From Patescibacteria group bacterium (GTDB lineage: Bacteria; Patescibacteriota; Microgenomatia; UBA1400; PJMF01), in contig JBPOHR010000003.1 in NCBI GenBank assembly GCA_052035325.1, positions 1-60,445 of the forward strand: a stretch of 60,445 nt of DNA, read 5' to 3'. The translations under genes and the position numbers were made by a program. Each line of letters opens with the position of its first letter. Within the stretch, counting starts at the first letter, position 1. Under the pieces are notes generated by a model. It saw only the letters and a list, made by a program, of their open reading frames with translations. It searched no databases and was not told the origin of the DNA. Positions 9,255 to 47,556 of this stretch are shown here, in pieces.

Positions 9255-9327
9255 GGTCCGGTGGTGTAGCGGTTAACATGCCTCCCTGTCACGGAGGAGA
9301 TCGAGGGTTCGATTCCCTTCCGGATCG
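9255..9327 (+). tRNA. tRNA-Asp (GTC), CCA not encoded
   Basis: Acceptor GGTCCGG/CCGGATC, anticodon arm CCTCC-CTGTCAC-GGAGG, T loop TTCGATT; promoter TGG-TATAAT at 9237-9245. Confidence 0.97.
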
Positions 9328-9339
9328 CAAGAACAATAG

Positions 9340-11182: not shown

Positions 11183-11256
11183 GCGGGATTAGTTCACTGG
11201 TAGAATGATTCCTTCCCAAGGAATAGAAGCGGGTCCGATTCCCGTATCCCGCTCCA
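11183..11256 (+). tRNA. tRNA-Gly (CCC), CCA encoded, T loop TCCGATT
   Basis: Acceptor GCGGGAT/ATCCCGC, U73, CCA; anticodon arm ATTCC-TTCCCAA-GGAAT; promoter TGT-TAGAAT at 11155-11163. Confidence 0.96.
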
Positions 11257-13189: not shown

Positions 13190-13262
13190 GCCTGTGTAGC
13201 TCAGTTGGTAGAGCGGCGGTATCGTAAACCGCAGGTCGTCGGTCCGATCCCGACCGCAGGCT
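13190..13262 (+). tRNA. tRNA-Thr (CGT), CCA not encoded, T loop TCCGATC, A32
   Basis: Acceptor GCCTGTG/CGCAGGC, D arm GCTC-AGTTGGTA-GAGC, anticodon arm GCGGT-ATCGTAA-ACCGC; promoter TGA-TATACT at 13170-13178. Confidence 0.95.
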
Positions 13263-13315
13263 CACATAGCATACAATCTACATCTCTTCCGTAGACGAGG
13301 TATACTATATAAACT

Positions 13316-14017
13316 ATGGTGTCTTCCCGATTAGCTCGCCACGAACAAGAAAAATTATTGACCCAGACTCTCCTGTTCATTGTCGGAGCAATTGTCCTGG
13401 CATTACTCTTCATTTTCGTGGTATTACCTGGATTTGTGCGCTTAGTGACAGGTTCAAATGCCGTCTCGCCTCTTGGTAGTAGTGACACAATTCCTCCTCA
13501 AATACCGGTACTCGCTCCTCCGCCAGAGGCTACACCAAGCGCACAGATTGCTTTGACCGGCTACGGTGAGGCTAAATCATCTGTGGTACTCGTGCTGAAC
13601 GGCACACAACAAGGTGAAGCACCAATTGGTGATGATGGCGCATTTAGTATCGACGTCCCACTTACTGAAGGTGAAAACATGGTGGCAATTTTCGCACGTG
13701 ATGAAGCTGGCAATGAATCAAACACCACCAATCCCATTACCATTATCCAAGACACTACCGCTCCCAAACTCGAAGTAAACGAGCCCCAGGATGCCCAACA
13801 GGTAGAGTTGCGACGCAATCAGGTTATCACCGTCAAAGGTGCAACTGATCCAGGCACAACGGTGACATTAAATGGTCGACGCGTCTTCACACAGGCAGAT
13901 GGTAGTTTTACGACAACTTTTCAACTCCAAGAAGGTGACAACACGTTACAGTTTGTGGCAATGGATAAAGCTGGCAATAAATCAGAAAAAGCAGTAGCTG
14001 TCCACTTTAAGCTCTAA
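13316..14017 (+). CDS. Membrane-anchored protein with two bacterial Ig-like domains
   Basis: N-terminal TM, Pro-rich linker, two repeats ending LTEGEN..AIFARDEAGNES and LQEGDN.LQFVAMDKAGNKS. Confidence 0.85.
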   Translation: MVSSRLARHEQEKLLTQTLLFIVGAIVLALLFIFVVLPGFVRLVTGSNAVSPLGSSDTIPPQIPVLAPPPEATPSAQIALTGYGEAKSSVVLVLNGTQQGEAPIGDDGAFSIDVPLTEGENMVAIFARDEAGNESNTTNPITIIQDTTAPKLEVNEPQDAQQVELRRNQVITVKGATDPGTTVTLNGRRVFTQADGSFTTTFQLQEGDNTLQFVAMDKAGNKSEKAVAVHFKL

Positions 14018-21784: not shown

Positions 21785-22849
21785 TTAGGATAGAAAGATT
21801 GACTCTGTCTGTCGGTAAAAATAACGAAGCGACTGTACTAATCCCAACAGCCACGAAATGGCAACAATTGAACTACCCCCATACGACAAAAAAGGTAACG
21901 TAATACCGGTAATAGGTAATAACCCCATATTCATACCTATATTGATTCCCGATTGAACCGTCAACATTACTGCTGTCGCCACAGCTATCGAGCGGCCAGC
22001 AGGATGAGTCGAGTGTTCACCAATCCACAAACAAGCAGCAATCATGGTCATATATACCATAATTACCAATACTGAACCCAAAAAGCCTACTTCTTCGGCA
22101 AAAGAGGCAAAAATGAAGTCAGTTTGACGCTCAGGTAGGAATCTTAGATGAGACTGAATACCCTCACCCAATCCTCTACCAGTCACTTCACCCGAGCCAA
22201 CTGCTATAAGTGCCTGACGAGCGTTGTAACTTGATGCGTCCTGACTGGCTTGTGGATTCGCGAAGCTATAGATTCGCTCTTTCTGATACGGTTTGAGGAA
22301 AAAGAGCCAGGCTACTAACCCAAGAACAGTACCAATACCAATCAAGCCCAAAATATAACGCAAATCTAATTTGCTTATCCACAGTACCGCGCCAAGCGCT
22401 GCGACATAAATCACTGTCGTCCCCAGATCAGGCTCAATAATAATCAGTCCAGCAGGCAACGCAATAATTGCCAAGATTTCGAGTAGTACTCGAAGATCTT
22501 TGCCATCAAATTTTTGCAAACGAGAAATTAGCATTAACACAACAGTAGGAATAGCCAATTGTGACGGCTGAATTGAAAATAAGGTACCCACATTGATCCA
22601 GCCTGTTATACCTCGAGTAGTAGTGCCTGTGACAAGCGGAATTATCAGTAGAACTATCAATGCGACATAGAGCAGTGGTGCGATTTTTAACCACCGTTGA
22701 AGACCATACCATGGCGTGGCAAAGAAAATCACCCCCGCTAATATGAGAAAAAAAAGCTGGAGCGTCGCCACACCAGGTGCAATGCTACGTAGGATGAGCA
22801 AACTCAAGCCACCCAGAATTGCCATACATGTTGGAAGCAACCACTTCAT
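21785..22849 (-). CDS. rodA: SEDS peptidoglycan polymerase RodA
   Basis: IQPSQLA, EPDLGT, LKPYQKERI, ALIAVGSG, FLPERQTDFIF, GITLPFLSYGGSS. Confidence 0.92.
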   Translation of the reverse strand: MKWLLPTCMAILGGLSLLILRSIAPGVATLQLFFLILAGVIFFATPWYGLQRWLKIAPLLYVALIVLLIIPLVTGTTTRGITGWINVGTLFSIQPSQLAIPTVVLMLISRLQKFDGKDLRVLLEILAIIALPAGLIIIEPDLGTTVIYVAALGAVLWISKLDLRYILGLIGIGTVLGLVAWLFFLKPYQKERIYSFANPQASQDASSYNARQALIAVGSGEVTGRGLGEGIQSHLRFLPERQTDFIFASFAEEVGFLGSVLVIMVYMTMIAACLWIGEHSTHPAGRSIAVATAVMLTVQSGINIGMNMGLLPITGITLPFLSYGGSSIVAISWLLGLVQSLRYFYRQTESIFLS

Positions 22850-22903: not shown

Positions 22904-25723
22904 CTATGAAATCTTCAACTCTCCACCTTTTTTCAGCTTCGTATTCGTTTTTTTCTCAATTTCAGCTTGCCACTCTTCTGGCCAAGTCGGAGTTTCAATA
23001 GTAGCTTGGTCACTAGGCTTCAGACCGGCTTCGCGACGTAGTTTCTGGATAGTGCGCATGAGTTCTCGGGCTTCACCTTCTGCTCGTAAGTCATCAGTTA
23101 ATTCTGTATCAAGTACAACAGTCAGTTCACCATCACTTTTGTCCAATTCCACCGTTTTAACATTCAACTCTAACTTGATTACTTCCTCAACCGATACATT
23201 TTTCAGCACGACATTACCAGATACCGCAACCTTGCTAAGTGGTTGGCGCACTTTGATTCCACTCTCTTTACGAGCTGCGTGTCCCGCCTCCACTACCTGT
23301 CGCGCAATCACCATGTCGGCACCAAGTTTATCATTATCGAAATCAAGATATTCGTCTTTATCAGGCCACATCGTCAAGTGAATTGAAGCACTTTCACTAA
23401 CTAAAGTGTGAAACACCACTTCGCTAAAAAACGGGGCAAATGGTGCCATCAGTTGGGCTAACACAAAAAGTGCGTGACCAAAGACGTGCCCAGCTTCGCC
23501 CGTCGAATCATTCTTTATGCGTTCACGACTCAGACGCAGATACCAGGTAGAAAGATCATTCGCAAAAGCCATTAACCGTCGGCTAGCACGAACAACATCA
23601 TATGCATCCATGTAGTTCGTTACTTCTTTAACTAAGGCAGCCAGCTCATGCATCAACCACTGATCCATCACATCGGTTGGGGCAGCTGGCATTACCGTCA
23701 CATCGGCAGGTTTGCTCGCAAACTGCTCGTAAAAAGACAATACATTCCACCAAATCACAAACACATTGCGACGAATATCCGCGACCTCTTTTTCCGCAAA
23801 GTTCAAATTTTCACCCTTCATCACGGTTGAACTCATCAAGTACAAACGCAAACTATCCACACCATACTTTTCGATCAACACCATCGGATCTGGGTAATTT
23901 TTCTTAGATTTGCTCATCTTGGTGCCATCTTCTGCCAAAATCGTGCCCGTCGTCAGGACATTTTCAAATGGCTTTCGATCAAACAAAGCTGTTGACATCA
24001 CATGCATGGTATAGAACCAGGCGCGTGTCTGGGCAATGTACTCACTCACAAACTGCGCGGGTGATCGATCATGAAAGGTCTGTGCATTTTCAAATGGATA
24101 GTGTGGCACTGCAAACGGCATCGAGCCTGACTCGACCCAACAGTCAAACACCTCGGGGACTCGTGTCCCTTTGATCGTTCGCTCTTCGTTAATCCAGATT
24201 TCAATGTCGTCAATATACTCACGGTGAATATCCGTCAAATTAGCGACTCGCTCAGGCTCTACCGCCCACTCTTTTAGCTCAGATATCGAACCCACAATGC
24301 GATACTGCCCTTCAGCGCTCACCCAAATTGGCATGGGTGTACCCCAATATCTTGATCGGGAAATATTCCAATCAGGCGCATTCTCTAGACCTTTTTTGAA
24401 ACGGCCATGTTTGAGATGTTCAGGATACCAGTTAATCTGCTCGTTCAACTCCACAAGTCGCGGACGAAGTCGAGCAATATCAATAAACCAAGCGGGTAAT
24501 GGTGCGTAATACAATCTGGTGCCACACCGATAACAGGTAGCCACACTATGCGTATGTTGGTGGTGAGCATAAATCAACCCACGATCCATCAAGTGAGCAT
24601 CAATACTCTCGTTGGCTTTGAGAATAAATTGACCGGCCCATTCACCAATTTCTGGCTTTAGTTTACCTTCTTCATCGACGTGTTCAATAAGCTGGATACC
24701 TCGGTCTTTCATCACCCGATAGTCATCTTCACCATACACAGCCAACGTCACTACTCCGGTACCTTCTTCAGCGGTCACAAAAGGATCTGCAACCACGACA
24801 CCGAATTTTTCAGTTGACATTCGATCAGGATAAAAATCAAAGTGAGGTATGAACTCTAATTCTTCAAGTTCTTGACCAGTATAGGATTGCACTACTTCAT
24901 AGAATGTCTCTTTTTTTAATTCACTCAAGCGACTCTCCGCCAAAATATAGTACTCATTGCCTTGCTTGACTTTAACGTACCTCAAATCAGGATTCACAGC
25001 CAACGCAGGCGTAGCTAATTTGTTCCACGGCGTCGTCGACCAGGCCAGCAAATACGTATCAGCTTGACCTACTACTGGATACTTATATGTGGTTGAAGGT
25101 TCGCTGACTTCTTTGTAACTATTGTCCATCGCAATTTCGAAGTTAGAGAGAGGCGTCGAGCATCGTGGACAGTACAAGATCACTTTGCGACCTTCATAGA
25201 CTAGCTTTTTCTCCCACAGTTGTTTGAATCCCCACCAGACCGATTCCATGAAAGTGGTATCCATGGTTTTGTAGTTGTGCTCAAAGTCTACCCAACGACC
25301 AAGGCGACCAATGATCCGCTCCCACTCTTTATCGAGCTTCAGCACTTCTTGACGACAAGCATCGTTAAACTGATCAATTCCGAACTCCTCAATCCCTTTT
25401 TTACCACCTTTGATCTCGAGTTTTTGCTCGATCATGTTCTCGATAGGCAAACCATGACAGTCCCAACCCCAGACGCGCTCTACCCTGTAGCCCTTCATCG
25501 TCCAATAGCGAGGAATCACGTCTTTGGTGGTAGAGGCGAGTAAGTGACCGTAATGAGGTAAACCAGTAGCAAATGGTGGACCATCGTAGAACACATAGGC
25601 TTTGTCGGCTGGCCGCTCTTGAACCGACTTTTCAAAGGTCTGATCATCCTGCCAGAACTGTTGCACTTCCTCCTCAAGTTGAGGGAAAGAAGGTGGCTGA
25701 GTAAAGTTAGTTGCTTTGGGCAT
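22904..25723 (-). CDS. ileS: Isoleucine--tRNA ligase, type 2 (IleRS2)
   Basis: DGPPFATGLPHYGH, GWDCHGLPIE, WSTTPW, DWNISRSRYWGTPMPIW, QTRAWFY, KMSKS. Confidence 0.97.
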   Translation of the reverse strand: MPKATNFTQPPSFPQLEEEVQQFWQDDQTFEKSVQERPADKAYVFYDGPPFATGLPHYGHLLASTTKDVIPRYWTMKGYRVERVWGWDCHGLPIENMIEQKLEIKGGKKGIEEFGIDQFNDACRQEVLKLDKEWERIIGRLGRWVDFEHNYKTMDTTFMESVWWGFKQLWEKKLVYEGRKVILYCPRCSTPLSNFEIAMDNSYKEVSEPSTTYKYPVVGQADTYLLAWSTTPWNKLATPALAVNPDLRYVKVKQGNEYYILAESRLSELKKETFYEVVQSYTGQELEELEFIPHFDFYPDRMSTEKFGVVVADPFVTAEEGTGVVTLAVYGEDDYRVMKDRGIQLIEHVDEEGKLKPEIGEWAGQFILKANESIDAHLMDRGLIYAHHQHTHSVATCYRCGTRLYYAPLPAWFIDIARLRPRLVELNEQINWYPEHLKHGRFKKGLENAPDWNISRSRYWGTPMPIWVSAEGQYRIVGSISELKEWAVEPERVANLTDIHREYIDDIEIWINEERTIKGTRVPEVFDCWVESGSMPFAVPHYPFENAQTFHDRSPAQFVSEYIAQTRAWFYTMHVMSTALFDRKPFENVLTTGTILAEDGTKMSKSKKNYPDPMVLIEKYGVDSLRLYLMSSTVMKGENLNFAEKEVADIRRNVFVIWWNVLSFYEQFASKPADVTVMPAAPTDVMDQWLMHELAALVKEVTNYMDAYDVVRASRRLMAFANDLSTWYLRLSRERIKNDSTGEAGHVFGHALFVLAQLMAPFAPFFSEVVFHTLVSESASIHLTMWPDKDEYLDFDNDKLGADMVIARQVVEAGHAARKESGIKVRQPLSKVAVSGNVVLKNVSVEEVIKLELNVKTVELDKSDGELTVVLDTELTDDLRAEGEARELMRTIQKLRREAGLKPSDQATIETPTWPEEWQAEIEKKTNTKLKKGGELKIS

Positions 25724-25766
25724 AAAAAAACCTCCATCGCGCTATATACATAGTGCGTGAAGGTTT
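25724..25766 (-). terminator. ileS leader terminator / SD-sequestering hairpin
   Basis: AAACCUUC-ACGCACUAUGUAUAUAGCGCGAU-GGAGGUUU followed by more U's (7 in total) and then AUG; the 5' arm overlaps the antiterminator. Confidence 0.8.
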
Positions 25767-25905
25767 CTCGAGATCTCTCAAGAAAGGTACCAACCTTCTG
25801 TACTTGATTATGGCTGTATCGGGCTCCCCGGCTCGGTCTAGTGTCTATGCTTCAGCAAAGAGTTCTTCGAGCACCTCCCCTAGTGATGGCTAGGGTTATG
25901 CGGCT
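25724..25905 (-). ncRNA. T-box riboswitch leader of ileS with ultrashort Stem I (specifier AUC)
   Basis: Promoter TGG-TACACT (25912-25920); hairpin CCCUAG-CCAUCA-CUAGGG (25878-25895); T-box AGAAGGU-UGGUACC (25786-25792 bulge); antiterminator closed by CCUU; alternative hairpin followed by U7. Confidence 0.9.
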
Positions 25906-25942
25906 ATATGTAGTGTACCACGAGGCAGCTGGTAACAAAATG

Positions 25943-27484
25943 CTACTTCCCATTTGAAAATGTCAGTTCAGAGCTACTCACTATTTTTGGCGAAAGAGAA
26001 CCTAGATATCTATTCAACCAAAACTTCCTCATCAGTGCAGAAAACCACGTATCATGTTTTCGAAGTGATCTAAGATACTCTCCATGTTTTCTCCCTAATT
26101 CATCTATCTTTGTGCTCACTTCTTTTAGCTGCACAGTATGGACAACCCCAGCTTCACCAGAAAGTGCTGCACTTTCATCCACTTTTTTCAACACGTATGT
26201 TTCAACGATCCCTAAAGCCTCATCAAGTGAAAGACCTAGAGTTGGTCCCGTTAGGCCAGCAAGCACTTGAGGCAAATAGTAGTACCGGACGGCATTATTT
26301 TCTGTTGAAACTTTGCCTAGGTGCTGTACAAACTCACCATGCTTGTGTACAGCGTCGAGTAGTACTTCCATTTGTTGTTTGTTAGCCACTTTTCTGGCAA
26401 GAGCTAGACGTACCGCAGCTACTGCTACCTTTGGTTTTTTTGAATATAACTTTGTGTACTCCGCTTTCATTCCCATAGACTCCATAAAGGACTCAAGCAT
26501 CGCCAACCAGGCTTCTTCTGGTGATTTACCAGCTCTCAGGGCATCAAATGCGCTAGCAACCAACTGCCAGTTCAACCAAGTTCGCTCATTCATGACCACA
26601 CTTGATCCATCAGCTGTAGGTACAACACCGGCCATATCGACTAGATTCTCCAACAGCCACTGCGTAAATTCTTCAGAAGTCTGGAAGATTGACTCGCTTA
26701 GCAATGCCTGTAGCTGCTCGGGACCCGCTTCAAGCCCTTGTGCTAACTGGCCAACATTGGTACTGACACCGCCTTTGATAATTCGTTTAATCCGCTCTTG
26801 GACGTCTGGTGACTGTTTATTTAGCAATGGCAAGAATTGAGCACGTAGTTCAGGCGTGTCCACTAGATAAGCCAGTGCCGCATCATGATCAGTAGTCAAG
26901 TTTGTGCCATGCGACTGAGCGTTTTCATGAATAGCTTTCTCGACTATGCCCAACTTAGCAATATCATGTTGCAGAAGTAGTACTATTTCCGTAGTGAATG
27001 ACTCAACACTTGAAACAGTACTGTTGGCTCGCTCGCACATCTGTTCAAATGAAGCCCGAGTTAAACCACCTGATTTTTCAGCTGAAGTCCGCGGGACAAA
27101 AAGTCTATAGGCTTTGTCAGCCGTAGCTACTTGGTTACCCTTATGAAGCAAAAACAACACATAAATCGACTGGATTGTCTTTTTCTTTTCTGTTTGTGGA
27201 TTTTTTGGTGAATAACTGGCGGCTTCCAGCGAGCGATCAAACAGACCAAGTTCTTCTGGAAATGCACTCTGTAATTTCCGGGAGAATACATCAAAAAATT
27301 GTGTTCTTGATTCTAGCAAATCAGGATCTACCTTTTCAAATTCCTGGAACACATCATTCAGCCAAGTCACGATATCAGCAGGTTTTTCTGATGCTGCTGC
27401 TAGTCTGTCACGGACAGTTTTGGGTACATCCATCCCCCCATCAACCATTTGTCTACGAATTACATCTTCAGCAAAAGAAAACAT
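25943..27484 (-). CDS. Hypothetical 513-aa protein with HD-phosphohydrolase-like motifs
   Basis: LLLQHDIAK, TDHD, NVGQLAQ.E, LVDMAG; TATACT 7 nt before ATG. Confidence 0.7.
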   Translation of the reverse strand: MFSFAEDVIRRQMVDGGMDVPKTVRDRLAAASEKPADIVTWLNDVFQEFEKVDPDLLESRTQFFDVFSRKLQSAFPEELGLFDRSLEAASYSPKNPQTEKKKTIQSIYVLFLLHKGNQVATADKAYRLFVPRTSAEKSGGLTRASFEQMCERANSTVSSVESFTTEIVLLLQHDIAKLGIVEKAIHENAQSHGTNLTTDHDAALAYLVDTPELRAQFLPLLNKQSPDVQERIKRIIKGGVSTNVGQLAQGLEAGPEQLQALLSESIFQTSEEFTQWLLENLVDMAGVVPTADGSSVVMNERTWLNWQLVASAFDALRAGKSPEEAWLAMLESFMESMGMKAEYTKLYSKKPKVAVAAVRLALARKVANKQQMEVLLDAVHKHGEFVQHLGKVSTENNAVRYYYLPQVLAGLTGPTLGLSLDEALGIVETYVLKKVDESAALSGEAGVVHTVQLKEVSTKIDELGRKHGEYLRSLRKHDTWFSALMRKFWLNRYLGSLSPKIVSSSELTFSNGK

Positions 27485-45311: not shown

Positions 45312-46709
45312 TTAGCTTACCATGTTTGCGAGGTAGGGCTCAAGTTCGGTGATGGGCACGCGCTGCTGCTCGGCAGTGTCGCGATTTCGAACAGTCACTG
45401 CTCCATCGGTAAGCGTCTCGAAGTCAATCGTGACGCAGGCAGGTGTACCAATTTCGTCTTGATACAGATATGCCTTACCAATGTTCCCCCGATTATCCCA
45501 AGCAGTACGCATGGTGGCGGATAATTGAGTGAAGACTTCTTGTGCCTTAGCCACGAGCTCTGGCTTGTTCTTGAGCAAGGGAATCACCGCCACTCGGTAT
45601 GGGGCCAGTGCCGGATTCAACCTCAGGACAGTGCGTTGTTTGGAGTCGTCGAACCAGTAGGCATCGGTCAGGATCATCAGAAACAACCGATTGATACCAA
45701 CGGCTGGCTCGATGACGTGGGGCAAGAACTTCTCACCCGATTGTGGATCGGTGTACTCGAGGCTTTGGCCCGAGTGATCTTGATGCTGCTTGAGATCGTA
45801 GTTCGTACGATATGCGACACCCCAGAGTTCTTTCCAGCCAAAACTAAAGTTATAATCCAGATCGTAGGTATCTTTACTGTAGTGACTGCGTTCTTTGTCG
45901 GTGTGTTGACGCCAACGCAAGTTCTCTGCCTTGATACCTAGCTGTTGCGTCACAAACTCCCACATGGCATCTTTCCACTTAGCGAGCTCATCTTCCCATT
46001 TAGATTGATTAGGATTGAAAAAGTACTCAATCTCGGCCTGCTCAAACTCAATCGTCCTGAAGACAAACTGCCCCGTAGTGATTTCATTGCGGAAACTACG
46101 TCCAATGTTACCCACCCCAAACGGCAGTTGCACACGAGTGCTGTCGAGAATTTGCTTGAAGTTGGCAAAAATGCCTTGGGCCGTCTCACCGCGGAGGTAG
46201 ACCTTTGACTTCTCACCCGTGACGGTGCCAATAGCTGTTTCAAACAATAAATTAAAACTCTTGGGTGCCGTGACGGGGTTACCATCGGGGCTGAGGATGT
46301 GATGCTCTGAGATAAAAGTAGCCATCTCGTCGATCTTCATATCCTCTACTGATACACCCATTACCTCAGTGTGCTTCGCTAACCAAGCCTCAATTAGATG
46401 ATCTGCCCGATAGCGCTTGTGACTAACCGTATCCTCCACCAACGGATCGCTGAAAGAAGCCACATGGCCAGACGCCACCCAAGTCTCAGGATGTTGGAGA
46501 ATCTGGGTGTCGAGACCAACCATGTCGGTACGACGGTGAATAAAGTGAGTCCACCACAAGTTACGAATATTACGAAGCAATTCAGCACCCAAAGGACCGT
46601 AGTCGTAGGAATTGGCTAACCCGCCATAAATCTGCGAAGTAGGAAATACGAAGCCGCGGCGTTTGGCCAAAGCAACGATGTCATCTAGTTTGACAGAAGT
46701 GTCTGTCAT
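45312..46709 (-). CDS. glyQS: Glycine--tRNA ligase, homodimeric (alpha2) type
   Basis: KRRGFVFP..QIYGG, YDYGPLG, LRGETAQG, FRNEIT, IEFEQAEIE, PHVIEPAVG, RYLYQDEIGTP-like anticodon-binding domain. Confidence 0.97.
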   Translation of the reverse strand: MTDTSVKLDDIVALAKRRGFVFPTSQIYGGLANSYDYGPLGAELLRNIRNLWWTHFIHRRTDMVGLDTQILQHPETWVASGHVASFSDPLVEDTVSHKRYRADHLIEAWLAKHTEVMGVSVEDMKIDEMATFISEHHILSPDGNPVTAPKSFNLLFETAIGTVTGEKSKVYLRGETAQGIFANFKQILDSTRVQLPFGVGNIGRSFRNEITTGQFVFRTIEFEQAEIEYFFNPNQSKWEDELAKWKDAMWEFVTQQLGIKAENLRWRQHTDKERSHYSKDTYDLDYNFSFGWKELWGVAYRTNYDLKQHQDHSGQSLEYTDPQSGEKFLPHVIEPAVGINRLFLMILTDAYWFDDSKQRTVLRLNPALAPYRVAVIPLLKNKPELVAKAQEVFTQLSATMRTAWDNRGNIGKAYLYQDEIGTPACVTIDFETLTDGAVTVRNRDTAEQQRVPITELEPYLANMVS

Positions 46710-46741: not shown

Positions 46742-46779
46742 AAAAAAGCCCCAGGCATCAATCATGATTGCCTAGGGAC
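46742..46779 (-). terminator. glyQS leader intrinsic terminator
   Basis: GUCCCUAGGCA-AUCAUGAUUGA-UGCCUGGGGC-UUUUUU; the 5' arm competes with the antiterminator. The SD GAAAGGG lies about 20 nt further downstream, unsequestered. Confidence 0.85.
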
Positions 46780-46898
46780 CCGGTGCCTTGCGGGCTAAGC
46801 AGAGACGTGTGGGCGGTTCCACCCTAGTTCTCACAGAGATCTATCGAAAACTGCGAGCACTTTTGAAAAAATGTGTTAAGACTGGTTGCCAGACCAGT
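46742..46898 (-). ncRNA. T-box riboswitch leader of glyQS with ultrashort Stem I (specifier GGC)
   Basis: Promoter TGA-TATACT (46905-46913); hairpin ACUGGU-CUGGCA-ACCAGU (46881-46898); Stem III CUCGCAG/CUGUGAG; T-box AACUAGGG-UGGAACC-GCCC; antiterminator closed by GGGUCCCU; terminator plus U6. Confidence 0.93.
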
Positions 46899-46941
46899 GT
46901 GTTAAGTATATCACGACAAAGGGACATTCCAGTACGACTAC

Positions 46942-47556
46942 TCATTTTTTTCGTCCAAGCAAGGCAGTTTTATTAGCAATAACTGATTGCTTAAGAAAGA
47001 GCACGTTTTGTCGTATGCTTCTTAATTCTTGAGGCCAAGTGTGATCAGCAGCGATTAGTTGATCCAGTTCACGTAGCAATTCCTGACAATAGGTAAGGGT
47101 TTCAATATAGTCAACACTCGTCACCATTCCCTGCATATCGTTGAGATGTCGTTTTACCAACTCGCGGTATTGAGCTGATCGAGCGGGAATGGCTCGCTTT
47201 CGCTCAAGTTTTCTCTGCATAATGGGATCTATAATGGTTTCTTTCGCCAAAACCGCATCATCTGAGGTCTTATCATGCAAGCTTAATGCCGTTTCCAGTA
47301 AATTGAGCAACCGTCTTTCTCGTTCTGTATCCTGATAGTTGTATAACGTATCTCGTATTTCCCCCAGTATTTCTGCAACCTTTGGCTGGGACTCAAAGAA
47401 GTTGGCAAATCCATAGGCTGGCTCGTCTGAATATGGAAGAGAAGATCTTTTCCTCTCACCCTTAAATAAACTTCTTACAAACGCCACCCACCTCTGCCAC
47501 CTGGTATCTAGGTGGTTGGTACTCTCATTTTTTTGAGGTTCTCTGTCTTTGGGCAT
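46942..47556 (-). CDS. Hypothetical helical protein (204 aa)
   Basis: Long ORF with TGC-TATGTT 8 nt before ATG; charged N-terminus followed by WQRWVAFVRSLF. Confidence 0.75.
   Translation of the reverse strand: MPKDREPQKNESTNHLDTRWQRWVAFVRSLFKGERKRSSLPYSDEPAYGFANFFESQPKVAEILGEIRDTLYNYQDTERERRLLNLLETALSLHDKTSDDAVLAKETIIDPIMQRKLERKRAIPARSAQYRELVKRHLNDMQGMVTSVDYIETLTYCQELLRELDQLIAADHTWPQELRSIRQNVLFLKQSVIANKTALLGRKK

Follow-up and report, generated by a model that had tools for sequence, protein, structure and literature searches.

T-boxes are conventionally divided into two classes. Transcriptional T-boxes have a long Stem I and capture the tRNA elbow quickly; translational T-boxes have a short Stem I and are found mostly in front of actinobacterial ileS genes. 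In reviews and in the TBDB database, each T-box is likewise placed in a transcriptional or a translational class, with no dual class; in reviews, a short Stem I goes with the translational class, the elbow platform of a long Stem I is called essential for transcriptional T-boxes, and which class evolved first is given as not known. For riboswitches, platforms for "dual transcription and translation attenuation" were defined in 2007 and were first noted for thiamine pyrophosphate (TPP) riboswitches (Barrick & Breaker, PMC2258182). Here we analyse the leader of the isoleucyl-tRNA synthetase gene ileS on the minus strand of a 60,445-nucleotide (nt) stretch of DNA (hereafter, the window) from a Patescibacteria genome (that is, a Microgenomates-like member of the Candidate Phyla Radiation (CPR)). 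By its sequence, the leader belongs to the ileS T-boxes with an ultrashort Stem I, and we judge it probable (roughly 0.6) that this T-box is specific for tRNA-Ile(GAU) and carries a dual expression platform, in which one co-transcriptional folding decision would have two read-outs, termination of transcription and a block of translation initiation.

An actinobacterial ileS translational T-box with an ultrashort Stem I was reportedly described by Sherwood, Grundy & Henkin in 2015. Like the T-boxes of this kind in Mycobacterium smegmatis and M. tuberculosis (structure 6UFG), the window leader presents its AUC-A specifier in the terminal loop that caps a short Stem I, and it has a Stem II GAAGAA/UAGA motif with a IIA/B hairpin, and a Shine–Dalgarno (SD) sequence in the 3′ arm of an OFF helix that competes with the T-box bulged helix. 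Unlike them, its OFF helix is followed by seven uridines (U7) and is terminator-like, whereas the actinobacterial examples examined have no U tract; most members of the Patescibacteria family, moreover, have a terminator far from the SD, and the window leader lacks an evident Stem III, carries the T-box sequence variant AAGGUUGGUACCUUU and belongs to a Patescibacteria host. With the classical transcriptional T-boxes (for example, Bacillus subtilis tyrS and glyQS; Rfam RF00230) it shares a 7-nt UGGN-bulge antiterminator that competes with a terminator and U tract, a default OFF state and a synthetase gene, but their long Stem I with its elbow-binding distal platform is absent, and its SD lies inside the terminator rather than downstream of it. 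Dual attenuation riboswitches (PMC2258182) similarly may attenuate transcription and, failing that, translation, although here the ligand would be a tRNA sensed by a T-box. The dual-acting riboswitches of E. coli (lysC, thiM/thiC, ribB and tbpA) also draw two outputs from one ligand-dependent fold, but their second output is mRNA decay (RNase E) or Rho termination after translation is lost, not an intrinsic terminator-sequestrator. Our literature search returned no paper on T-boxes in Patescibacteria or the CPR and none on a dual T-box, an earlier mention in key T-box papers being possible.

Alternative folds and decoding domain of the ileS leader

Read 5′ to 3′ on the minus strand, the expression platform consists of AAACCUUC (25766–25759), ACGCACUAUGUAUAUAGCGCGAU, GGAGG (25735–25731), UUUUUUU (25730–25724) and AUG (25723–25721). 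GGAGG, also found in the closest relative, L081, is the sole SD-like motif within 20 nt of the ileS start and forms part of the OFF hairpin's 3′ arm, and U7 serves as both the terminator tail and the SD-to-AUG spacer. The AUG is the earliest start available to the 939-amino-acid (aa) open reading frame (ORF), and because many relatives share the N-terminal MPK of IleS, irrespective of leader layout, we take this start codon to be correct and U7 to be the entire spacer.

In the OFF hairpin (25728–25766, minus strand), AAACCUUC pairs with GGAGGUUU (25735–25728) in eight outer pairs, among them one G–U pair and three A–U pairs that use the first three uridines of U7, and the stem continues through a 1-nt bulge, CGC/GCG, an A–C mismatch and CUAU/AUAG to a GUAU loop. 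Its predicted energy is −17.7 kcal/mol, against a mean of −5.6 kcal/mol for shuffled sequences (z = −5.99; 0 of 200 shuffles as good). The competing antiterminator (ON; 25759–25798, minus strand; −13.7 kcal/mol) comprises helix A1 (GAAGGU, 25798–25793, with ACCUUC, 25764–25759), the 7-nt bulge UGGUACC (25792–25786), of which UGGU is the predicted partner of the tRNA 3′ ACCA, and helix A2 (25785–25764; 9 base pairs (bp), loop AGAU). As AAACCUUC enters both folds, the antiterminator and the OFF hairpin are mutually exclusive. For the platform as a whole, the OFF fold reaches −30.3 kcal/mol versus −23.9 kcal/mol when the ON fold is forced; in the free ensemble the SD has a pairing probability of about 1.0, imposing the antiterminator frees most of it, and the OFF fold leaves the AUG and four uridines unpaired.

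Folding of the growing transcript passes from a palindromic T-box hairpin (GAAGGU-UGGU-ACCUUU) to the A2 hairpin, then to the antiterminator upon synthesis of ACCUUC, and finally to a three-hairpin OFF structure upon synthesis of GGAGG, from which point the OFF hairpin is the minimum-energy fold. The palindromic hairpin (25783–25798, minus strand; −4.6 kcal/mol) is the first to fold on itself and is also part of the OFF minimum-energy fold, where UGGU lies in its tetraloop; it may act as an anti-antiterminator, and the same variant occurs in L081, L084–L087, L001, L003 and L037. When the 90 runs of at least six T on both strands of the window are ranked by the stability of the preceding hairpin, the ileS leader comes third and a second T-box, that of glyQS, comes second. 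A simple terminator scan neither called the ileS hairpin nor found the glyQS terminator, probably owing to internal bulges and mismatches; across the window it returned 27, 20 and 20 terminators versus 16.7, 16.1 and 17.5 in shuffles. Being too rigid and giving near-shuffle counts, the consensus promoter/terminator scan was set aside in favour of the ranking of T runs and hairpins.

The less expected part of the leader is its decoding domain, which is of the ultrashort-Stem-I type and was not remarked on in the first reading of this DNA. Stem I (25878–25895, minus strand) consists of the 6-bp helix CCCUAG/CUAGGG and a 6-nt loop, CCAUCA, in which the specifier AUC (25887–25885) is followed by the conserved A (25884), upstream of ileS; there is no long Stem I bearing a K-turn, an AG bulge and a distal loop. 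A longer Stem I would not fit, because some 17 nt upstream there is a −10-like box. This putative extended −10 element (TGgTACACT, 25912–25920, minus strand), which would place the transcript start near 25905, matches the position of TGTATAAT in L081, and in many relatives TGnTATAAT-like boxes precede Stem I by 15–30 nt; at the ileS leader, the consensus scan was negative for a two-hexamer promoter. The long-Stem-I features are absent from the accepted actinobacterial subclass too.

The Stem I hairpin recurs in about 35 relatives with differing stem sequences, its AUCA motif is invariant or nearly so across 33 aligned leaders, and RNAalifold finds four Stem I pairs with both sides changed in 4–12 sequences per pair. 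In Stem II (25831–25872, minus strand; alignment A1), the lower helix GCUCG/CGAGC flanks GAAGAA (25868–25863) and UAGAC (25840–25836), and its five pairs are maintained despite two-sided changes in 5–20 of the 33 sequences (RNAalifold). The Stem IIA/B hairpin CGGG-GAG-CCCG (25820–25830, minus strand) fits the family consensus CCGGGUAAGCCCG, a block that is near-invariant in alignments A1 and A2 with its helix conserved and that also occurs in Actinomycetaceae ileS leaders; the IIA/B pseudoknot is putative. The T-box motif GAAGGU-UGGUACC-UUU departs from AGGGUGGNACCGCG at helix positions only and by compensatory changes, and helix A1 covaries across the family (AGAGG/CCUCU, AAGGU/ACCUU, AAAGG/CCUUU, UAAGG/CCUUA and CGGGG/CCCCG). 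The UGGU bulge is compatible with A73, the usual discriminator base of tRNA-Ile. In two ileS leaders, L006 (at about 2596) and L020 (at about 2900), the bulge reads UGGC in place of UGGU; the tRNA-Ile concerned would then have G as its discriminator, or the contact would be relaxed. The interval that separates the IIA/B hairpin from the T-box sequence (25801–25819, minus strand) shows no evident Stem III hairpin, as in L081 and many other relatives, and about one-third of relatives carry an inserted hairpin at this place (alignment A1).

A covariance model built from 26 relatives with the window excluded (model R1) gave a single match in the 60-kb window, covering the whole decoding domain and T-box sequence of the ileS leader (25783–25898, minus strand) at 84.9 bits (E ~ 1e-16), in the middle of the family spread of 62–101 bits; the model also matches Actinomycetaceae ileS leaders at about 56 bits. 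The Rfam model RF00230 (threshold, 93 bits) gave no match at the ileS leader even at E ≤ 10. This silence is to be expected, because the model, which scores a Chloroflexi long-Stem-I ileS leader at 103 bits, gives actinobacterial ultrashort-Stem-I leaders only 34–48 bits and the other Patescibacteria ones tested nothing; we therefore rejected it as a case against T-box membership. The Chloroflexi ileS leaders were also considered as a precedent for a terminator behind a short Stem I, and were rejected as their Stem I is canonical and long. As the standard Rfam model misses them, Patescibacteria T-boxes are probably under-annotated; the translational model of TBDB is applied solely to Actinobacteria and to truncated-Stem-I matches of the Rfam model.

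An earlier note on this DNA had called the element a T-box, had read GGAGG-U7-AUG with a perfect SD in the OFF 3′ arm and U7 as the whole spacer, and had identified the OFF 5′ arm with the 3′ strand of the antiterminator. The first of these is borne out by the specifier AUC-A, the UGGU bulge, the mutually exclusive antiterminator and terminator and the score obtained with relatives only; the second is exact to the base on the minus strand, and the third is confirmed for AAACCUUC (A1 strand ACCUUC). The OFF hairpin has the arms given in that note, but it extends further than was described.

Separate and merged platforms in relatives and metagenomes

IleS homologues from Patescibacteria at 55–80% identity were compared, their source names including Woesebacteria, Microgenomates and Pacebacteria; the titles of several metagenome-assembled genomes among them (for example, "Pseudomonadales") look mislabelled. 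About 40 relatives have the same leader, with a specifier hairpin with loop YYAUCA, GAAGAA, UAGAC, CCGGGUAAGCCCGUAA-AGC and AGAGGUGGUACC. In about 32 of them, the terminator U run ends 10–366 nt upstream of the start, and 18 of 32 unmerged leaders have a separate AAGGA/AGGAG SD at −13 to −7. As the SD lies out of reach of these hairpins, they can only act on transcription, and the decoding domain evidently works through termination. The OFF hairpin of the window has all the sequence features of the intrinsic terminators of these relatives, which stand well clear of a separate SD further downstream.

Eight leaders from at least three clades are merged, that is, U6–7 runs directly into the AUG and the 3′ arm contains an SD-like run: the window (GGAGG-U7-AUG), L081 (GGAGG-A-U6-AUG), L084 and L085 (both AAAGG-U7-AUG), L004 (GAGGG-U7-AUG), L018 and L038 (both AGGACGGG-U7-AUG) and L040 (GAGGAC-U7-AUG). 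L002, the sister of L004, has retained the SD hairpin and lost the U tract (tail AUCAUUUU). One ultrashort-Stem-I domain is thus found with three platforms, namely a separate terminator (most leaders), a merged hairpin (the window and seven others) and a sequestrator without U tract (L002). In L004 (2863–3003), an intact discriminator and the merged start accompany a decoding domain that has degenerated (family-model score, 28.9 bits); in L002, the decoding domain is intact (84.7 bits) but the U tract has decayed. In a neighbour-joining tree of IleS, the merged state appears in at least three clades, one of which is mixed, with the merged window, L081, L084 and L085 beside the unmerged L086 and L087.

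The comparison with L081, which has 80% IleS identity and the same ftsZ–ileS–rodA context, is the most direct: the decoding domain and T-box are nearly identical and the inner terminator hairpins are unrelated, and UGGAGG-(U/A)U6-AUG is retained in both despite the replaced inner hairpin. Ordinary SD–AUG spacers in this clade are mixed A/U and never U7. The U tract of the merged leaders is, on this comparative evidence, terminator-derived, given those mixed spacers, and, given its persistence, it has probably been selected. In any T-box terminator, the 3′ arm repeats the sequence of the A1 5′ strand (AGAGG, AAAGG) and hence reads like an SD beside a U6–8 spacer; the recurrent origin of merged leaders would be explained in this way, because deletion of the downstream spacer yields a ribosome site at once. 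What appears distinctive is that this Patescibacteria family couples a minimal, translational-type decoding domain to intrinsic terminators, with the window as a merged intermediate. L083, which was first taken to be without a T-box, was corrected when the family model found one (238–431) about 570 nt upstream of ileS, before an additional ORF of 172 aa overlapping the start of ileS; this riboswitch may control a two-gene unit.

A metagenome scan with the pattern GGTGGTACCG-N25-55-T7ATG, a biased search that gives no frequency, yielded at least 120 loci, nearly all of which show a T-box sequence followed by a terminator-like hairpin. Among the matches listed, roughly 30% have a long ORF beginning at the ATG that follows U7, although in several of these cases (TyrRS, LeuRS and some IleS) this ATG adds a short extension before the usual N terminus, leaving the true start ambiguous. 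The same matches include CUGGAGGA-U7-AUG in a freshwater group of about 47% GC with a 1036-aa IleS, AAGGAGGAA-U7-AUG before a 250-aa HD-domain protein and before an Asn/Asp-type class II synthetase, and CUAAGGAC-U7-AUG before a GNAT acetyltransferase. Merged T-box platforms are, to judge from these matches, not unique to the window and not rare among environmental T-box leaders. On the first 100 of these loci, model R1 gave five weak matches of 25–39 bits (among them L137, a GNAT leader with a long ORF after U7, at 25.4 bits) and matched no ileS leader; the idea that the metagenome loci belong to the same decoding family was rejected, as the model recognises none with a plausible merged start among those 100. 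The freshwater contigs with the 1036-aa IleS (L103, L119, L123, L157, L164, L187, L190, L194 and L208, and L155) have leaders with a short-Stem-I specifier hairpin and without the CCGGGUAAGCCCG block, that is, of a different decoding type, and the family model found no match in the freshwater leaders searched (L103–L187).

Readings of the merged hairpin

In the dual reading that we favour, the anticodon of uncharged tRNA-Ile would pair with AUC in the Stem I loop during transcription and its 3′ ACCA with the UGGU bulge, holding the antiterminator, which uses AAACCUUC; polymerase would then pass U7, GGAGG would be single-stranded 7 nt before the AUG, and ileS would be both transcribed and translated. 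Without uncharged tRNA, AAACCUUC would pair with GGAGGUUU, the hairpin and U tract would halt most polymerases at or just before the AUG, and transcripts that escape, or that are later freed of tRNA, would have their ribosome-binding site locked in a stem of about −16 to −18 kcal/mol. Two-level control of this kind is physically plausible and has probably been selected. The proposal of the earlier note that one hairpin gives two layers of control holds in so far as a terminator-like hairpin buries the sole SD, but the layers would be read-outs of a single fold and not independent controls. Its implication that the leader is an exception to the two T-box classes is sound in that reviews do use two classes; the novelty of the design was overstated, as the dual category is already defined for riboswitches, and the dual-platform design is here a known one applied to a T-box.

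A translational component is hinted at by several features. The terminator hairpins of merged leaders are weaker than those of unmerged ones (mean −16.0 versus −24.2 kcal/mol; Mann–Whitney p = 2e-4; p = 0.0055 with one value per lineage) and the gap between terminator and antiterminator is smaller (−5.3 versus −15.6 kcal/mol), which fits a need for ribosome access or reversibility, although these statistics come from related samples, some antiterminators were crudely defined and L084 and L085 are off the trend. Helix A2 is extended in the window leader, a feature that a review links to translational T-boxes, and L002 points the same way.

Other observations weigh, with that caveat on the energies, against the dual reading. 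The termination behaviour of the Patescibacteria RNA polymerase may differ, termination here being predicted; a bulge interrupts the stem beside the U tract after just five G/C-rich pairs, of which one is G–U, and the rigid scan was negative. Reviews hold that transcriptional T-boxes need a long Stem I for fast tRNA capture, and because they make this connection, translational-only action would be favoured. The merged layout could be mere genome compaction, since the 3′ arm of any T-box terminator reads GAGG/AAGG, and initiation independent of the SD might leak, since the AUG and four uridines are unpaired in the OFF fold. SD use in the window is also sparse: the cores GGAG, GAGG or AGGA occur at −18 to −7 in 6 of 48 long ORFs, against a background of 6.5%. 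Many ATGs lie 7–10 nt past TATACT/TATAAT-like boxes (for example, at 22849, 27484, 40274 and 50173 on the minus strand and at 13316 on the plus strand), which suggests that leaderless mRNAs are widespread in the source genome. Genes with leaders do have AAAGG/AAGGA, and given this and the SD in 18 of 32 unmerged ileS leaders, the SD appears to be used where a leader exists; the GGAGG of ileS is among the two best SDs in the window.

The strongest rival, which we consider rather unlikely, holds that the leader acts on transcription only: termination would proceed as in most relatives, the SD would have come to lie in the 3′ arm by spacer deletion in a compact genome, and its pairing would add no regulation, as read-through mRNAs either stay bound to tRNA or are opened by ribosomes. 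It draws on the separate terminators of about 32 of the roughly 40 relatives and on the native AGAGGG/AAAGG of terminator 3′ arms beside the U tract, by which a merged start gains its ribosome site for free; in addition, the hairpins of L084 (merged) and L087 (23-nt spacer) are nearly alike, and T-box–tRNA complexes can, according to a review, be very long-lived. However, a hairpin of −16 to −18 kcal/mol with an SD paired at about 1.0 must hinder 30S binding on full-length RNA in the OFF fold, the merged hairpins are systematically weaker and nearer to the antiterminator in energy, as if tuned, and the window and L081 use GGAGG with a G–U pair rather than the exact complement GAAGG. That the leader is translation-only, with the hairpin as a sequestrator like those of actinobacterial ileS T-boxes and the U tract as a relic or a favourable U-rich spacer that does not terminate, is clearly less probable still. 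The ultrashort-Stem-I decoding domain, with its family-model matches to Actinomycetaceae leaders at about 56 bits, the link drawn in reviews between an ultrashort Stem I and translational control, the small energy difference between the two folds of the window and the persistence of the layout without a U tract in L002 all speak for it, but the same decoding domain precedes SD-independent terminators in about 32 relatives, a perfect U6–7 is kept in 8 of 9 merged leaders from at least three clades, normal SD–AUG spacers in the clade being mixed A/U, and the hairpin with U7 is among the three best terminator-like sites of the window.

The family evidence speaks most strongly against an action on translation only, and the predicted base-pairing of the SD against an effect on transcription only. 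Very improbable is a decaying or non-functional leader, in which the structure would be a remnant and ileS constitutive: the missing Rfam match and the degenerate decoding domain of L004 (28.9 bits) could be read in this way, but the window scores in the middle of the family range, every functional motif is intact, the decoding region is near-identical to that of L081 while neutral parts have diverged, and Rfam under-scores or misses other ultrashort-Stem-I leaders as well.

If the dual platform is functional, control of termination does not require fast elbow capture, a simple route links the two T-box classes, and the family provides a compact system in which experiments could tell the two outputs apart, using naturally occurring leaders with a spacer, without one or without the U tract. 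We tentatively raise the possibility, in which we place much less confidence than in the dual reading itself, that the ileS T-boxes of Patescibacteria form a living series joining both classes, in which translational T-boxes would arise from transcriptional ones by spacer deletion, the merged form would be a two-stage checkpoint (that is, termination, and then translation for as long as uncharged tRNA stays bound) and co-transcriptional sensing of tRNA would do without an elbow-binding Stem I platform. As a sequestrator, once formed, barely reverts (PMC12647780), the conceptual gap between the two classes is narrowed.

Second T-box and neighbouring genes

The second T-box of the window (about 46742–46898, minus strand) lies upstream of a 465-aa glycyl-tRNA synthetase (45312–46709, minus strand) and had been put forward in the earlier note as a purely transcriptional comparator; its T-box layout is as claimed, the SD being separate and the terminator lying 32 nt upstream of the start codon. 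The leader contains AGGGUGGAACC with a UGGA bulge, a terminator of −20.3 kcal/mol whose U6 ends at 46742, and then a 32-nt interval that contains GAAAGGG and leads up to the ATG at 46709. A sub-threshold RF00230 match here (46798–46971; 24.1 bits versus 93) is the only one to that model in the window. The specifier GGC-A lies in a 6-nt hairpin loop (ACUGGU-CUGGCA-ACCAGU) that covaries in four relatives (L209–L212); a Stem III is present and no Stem II is evident in this leader. A glycine T-box without a long Stem I would have just two tRNA contacts.

The window contains no tRNA-Ile gene. Its three tRNA genes, all on the plus strand, encode tRNA-Asp-GUC (9255–9328), tRNA-Gly-CCC (11183–11256) and tRNA-Thr-CGU (13190–13263), none of which is cognate to either T-box (Ile-GAU and Gly-GCC being needed).

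The regulated gene ileS (22904–25723, minus strand; 939 aa) is identified by TIGR00392 at 783 bits (cut-off, 621) and its product has 80% identity to P0002. It is preceded by ftsZ and a 513-aa ORF and followed by a rodA/ftsW-type gene. The 513-aa ORF (25943–27484, minus strand), which lies between ftsZ and the ileS leader, has no NCBIfam match; in L081 no gene lies at this place, and ftsZ adjoins the leader directly.

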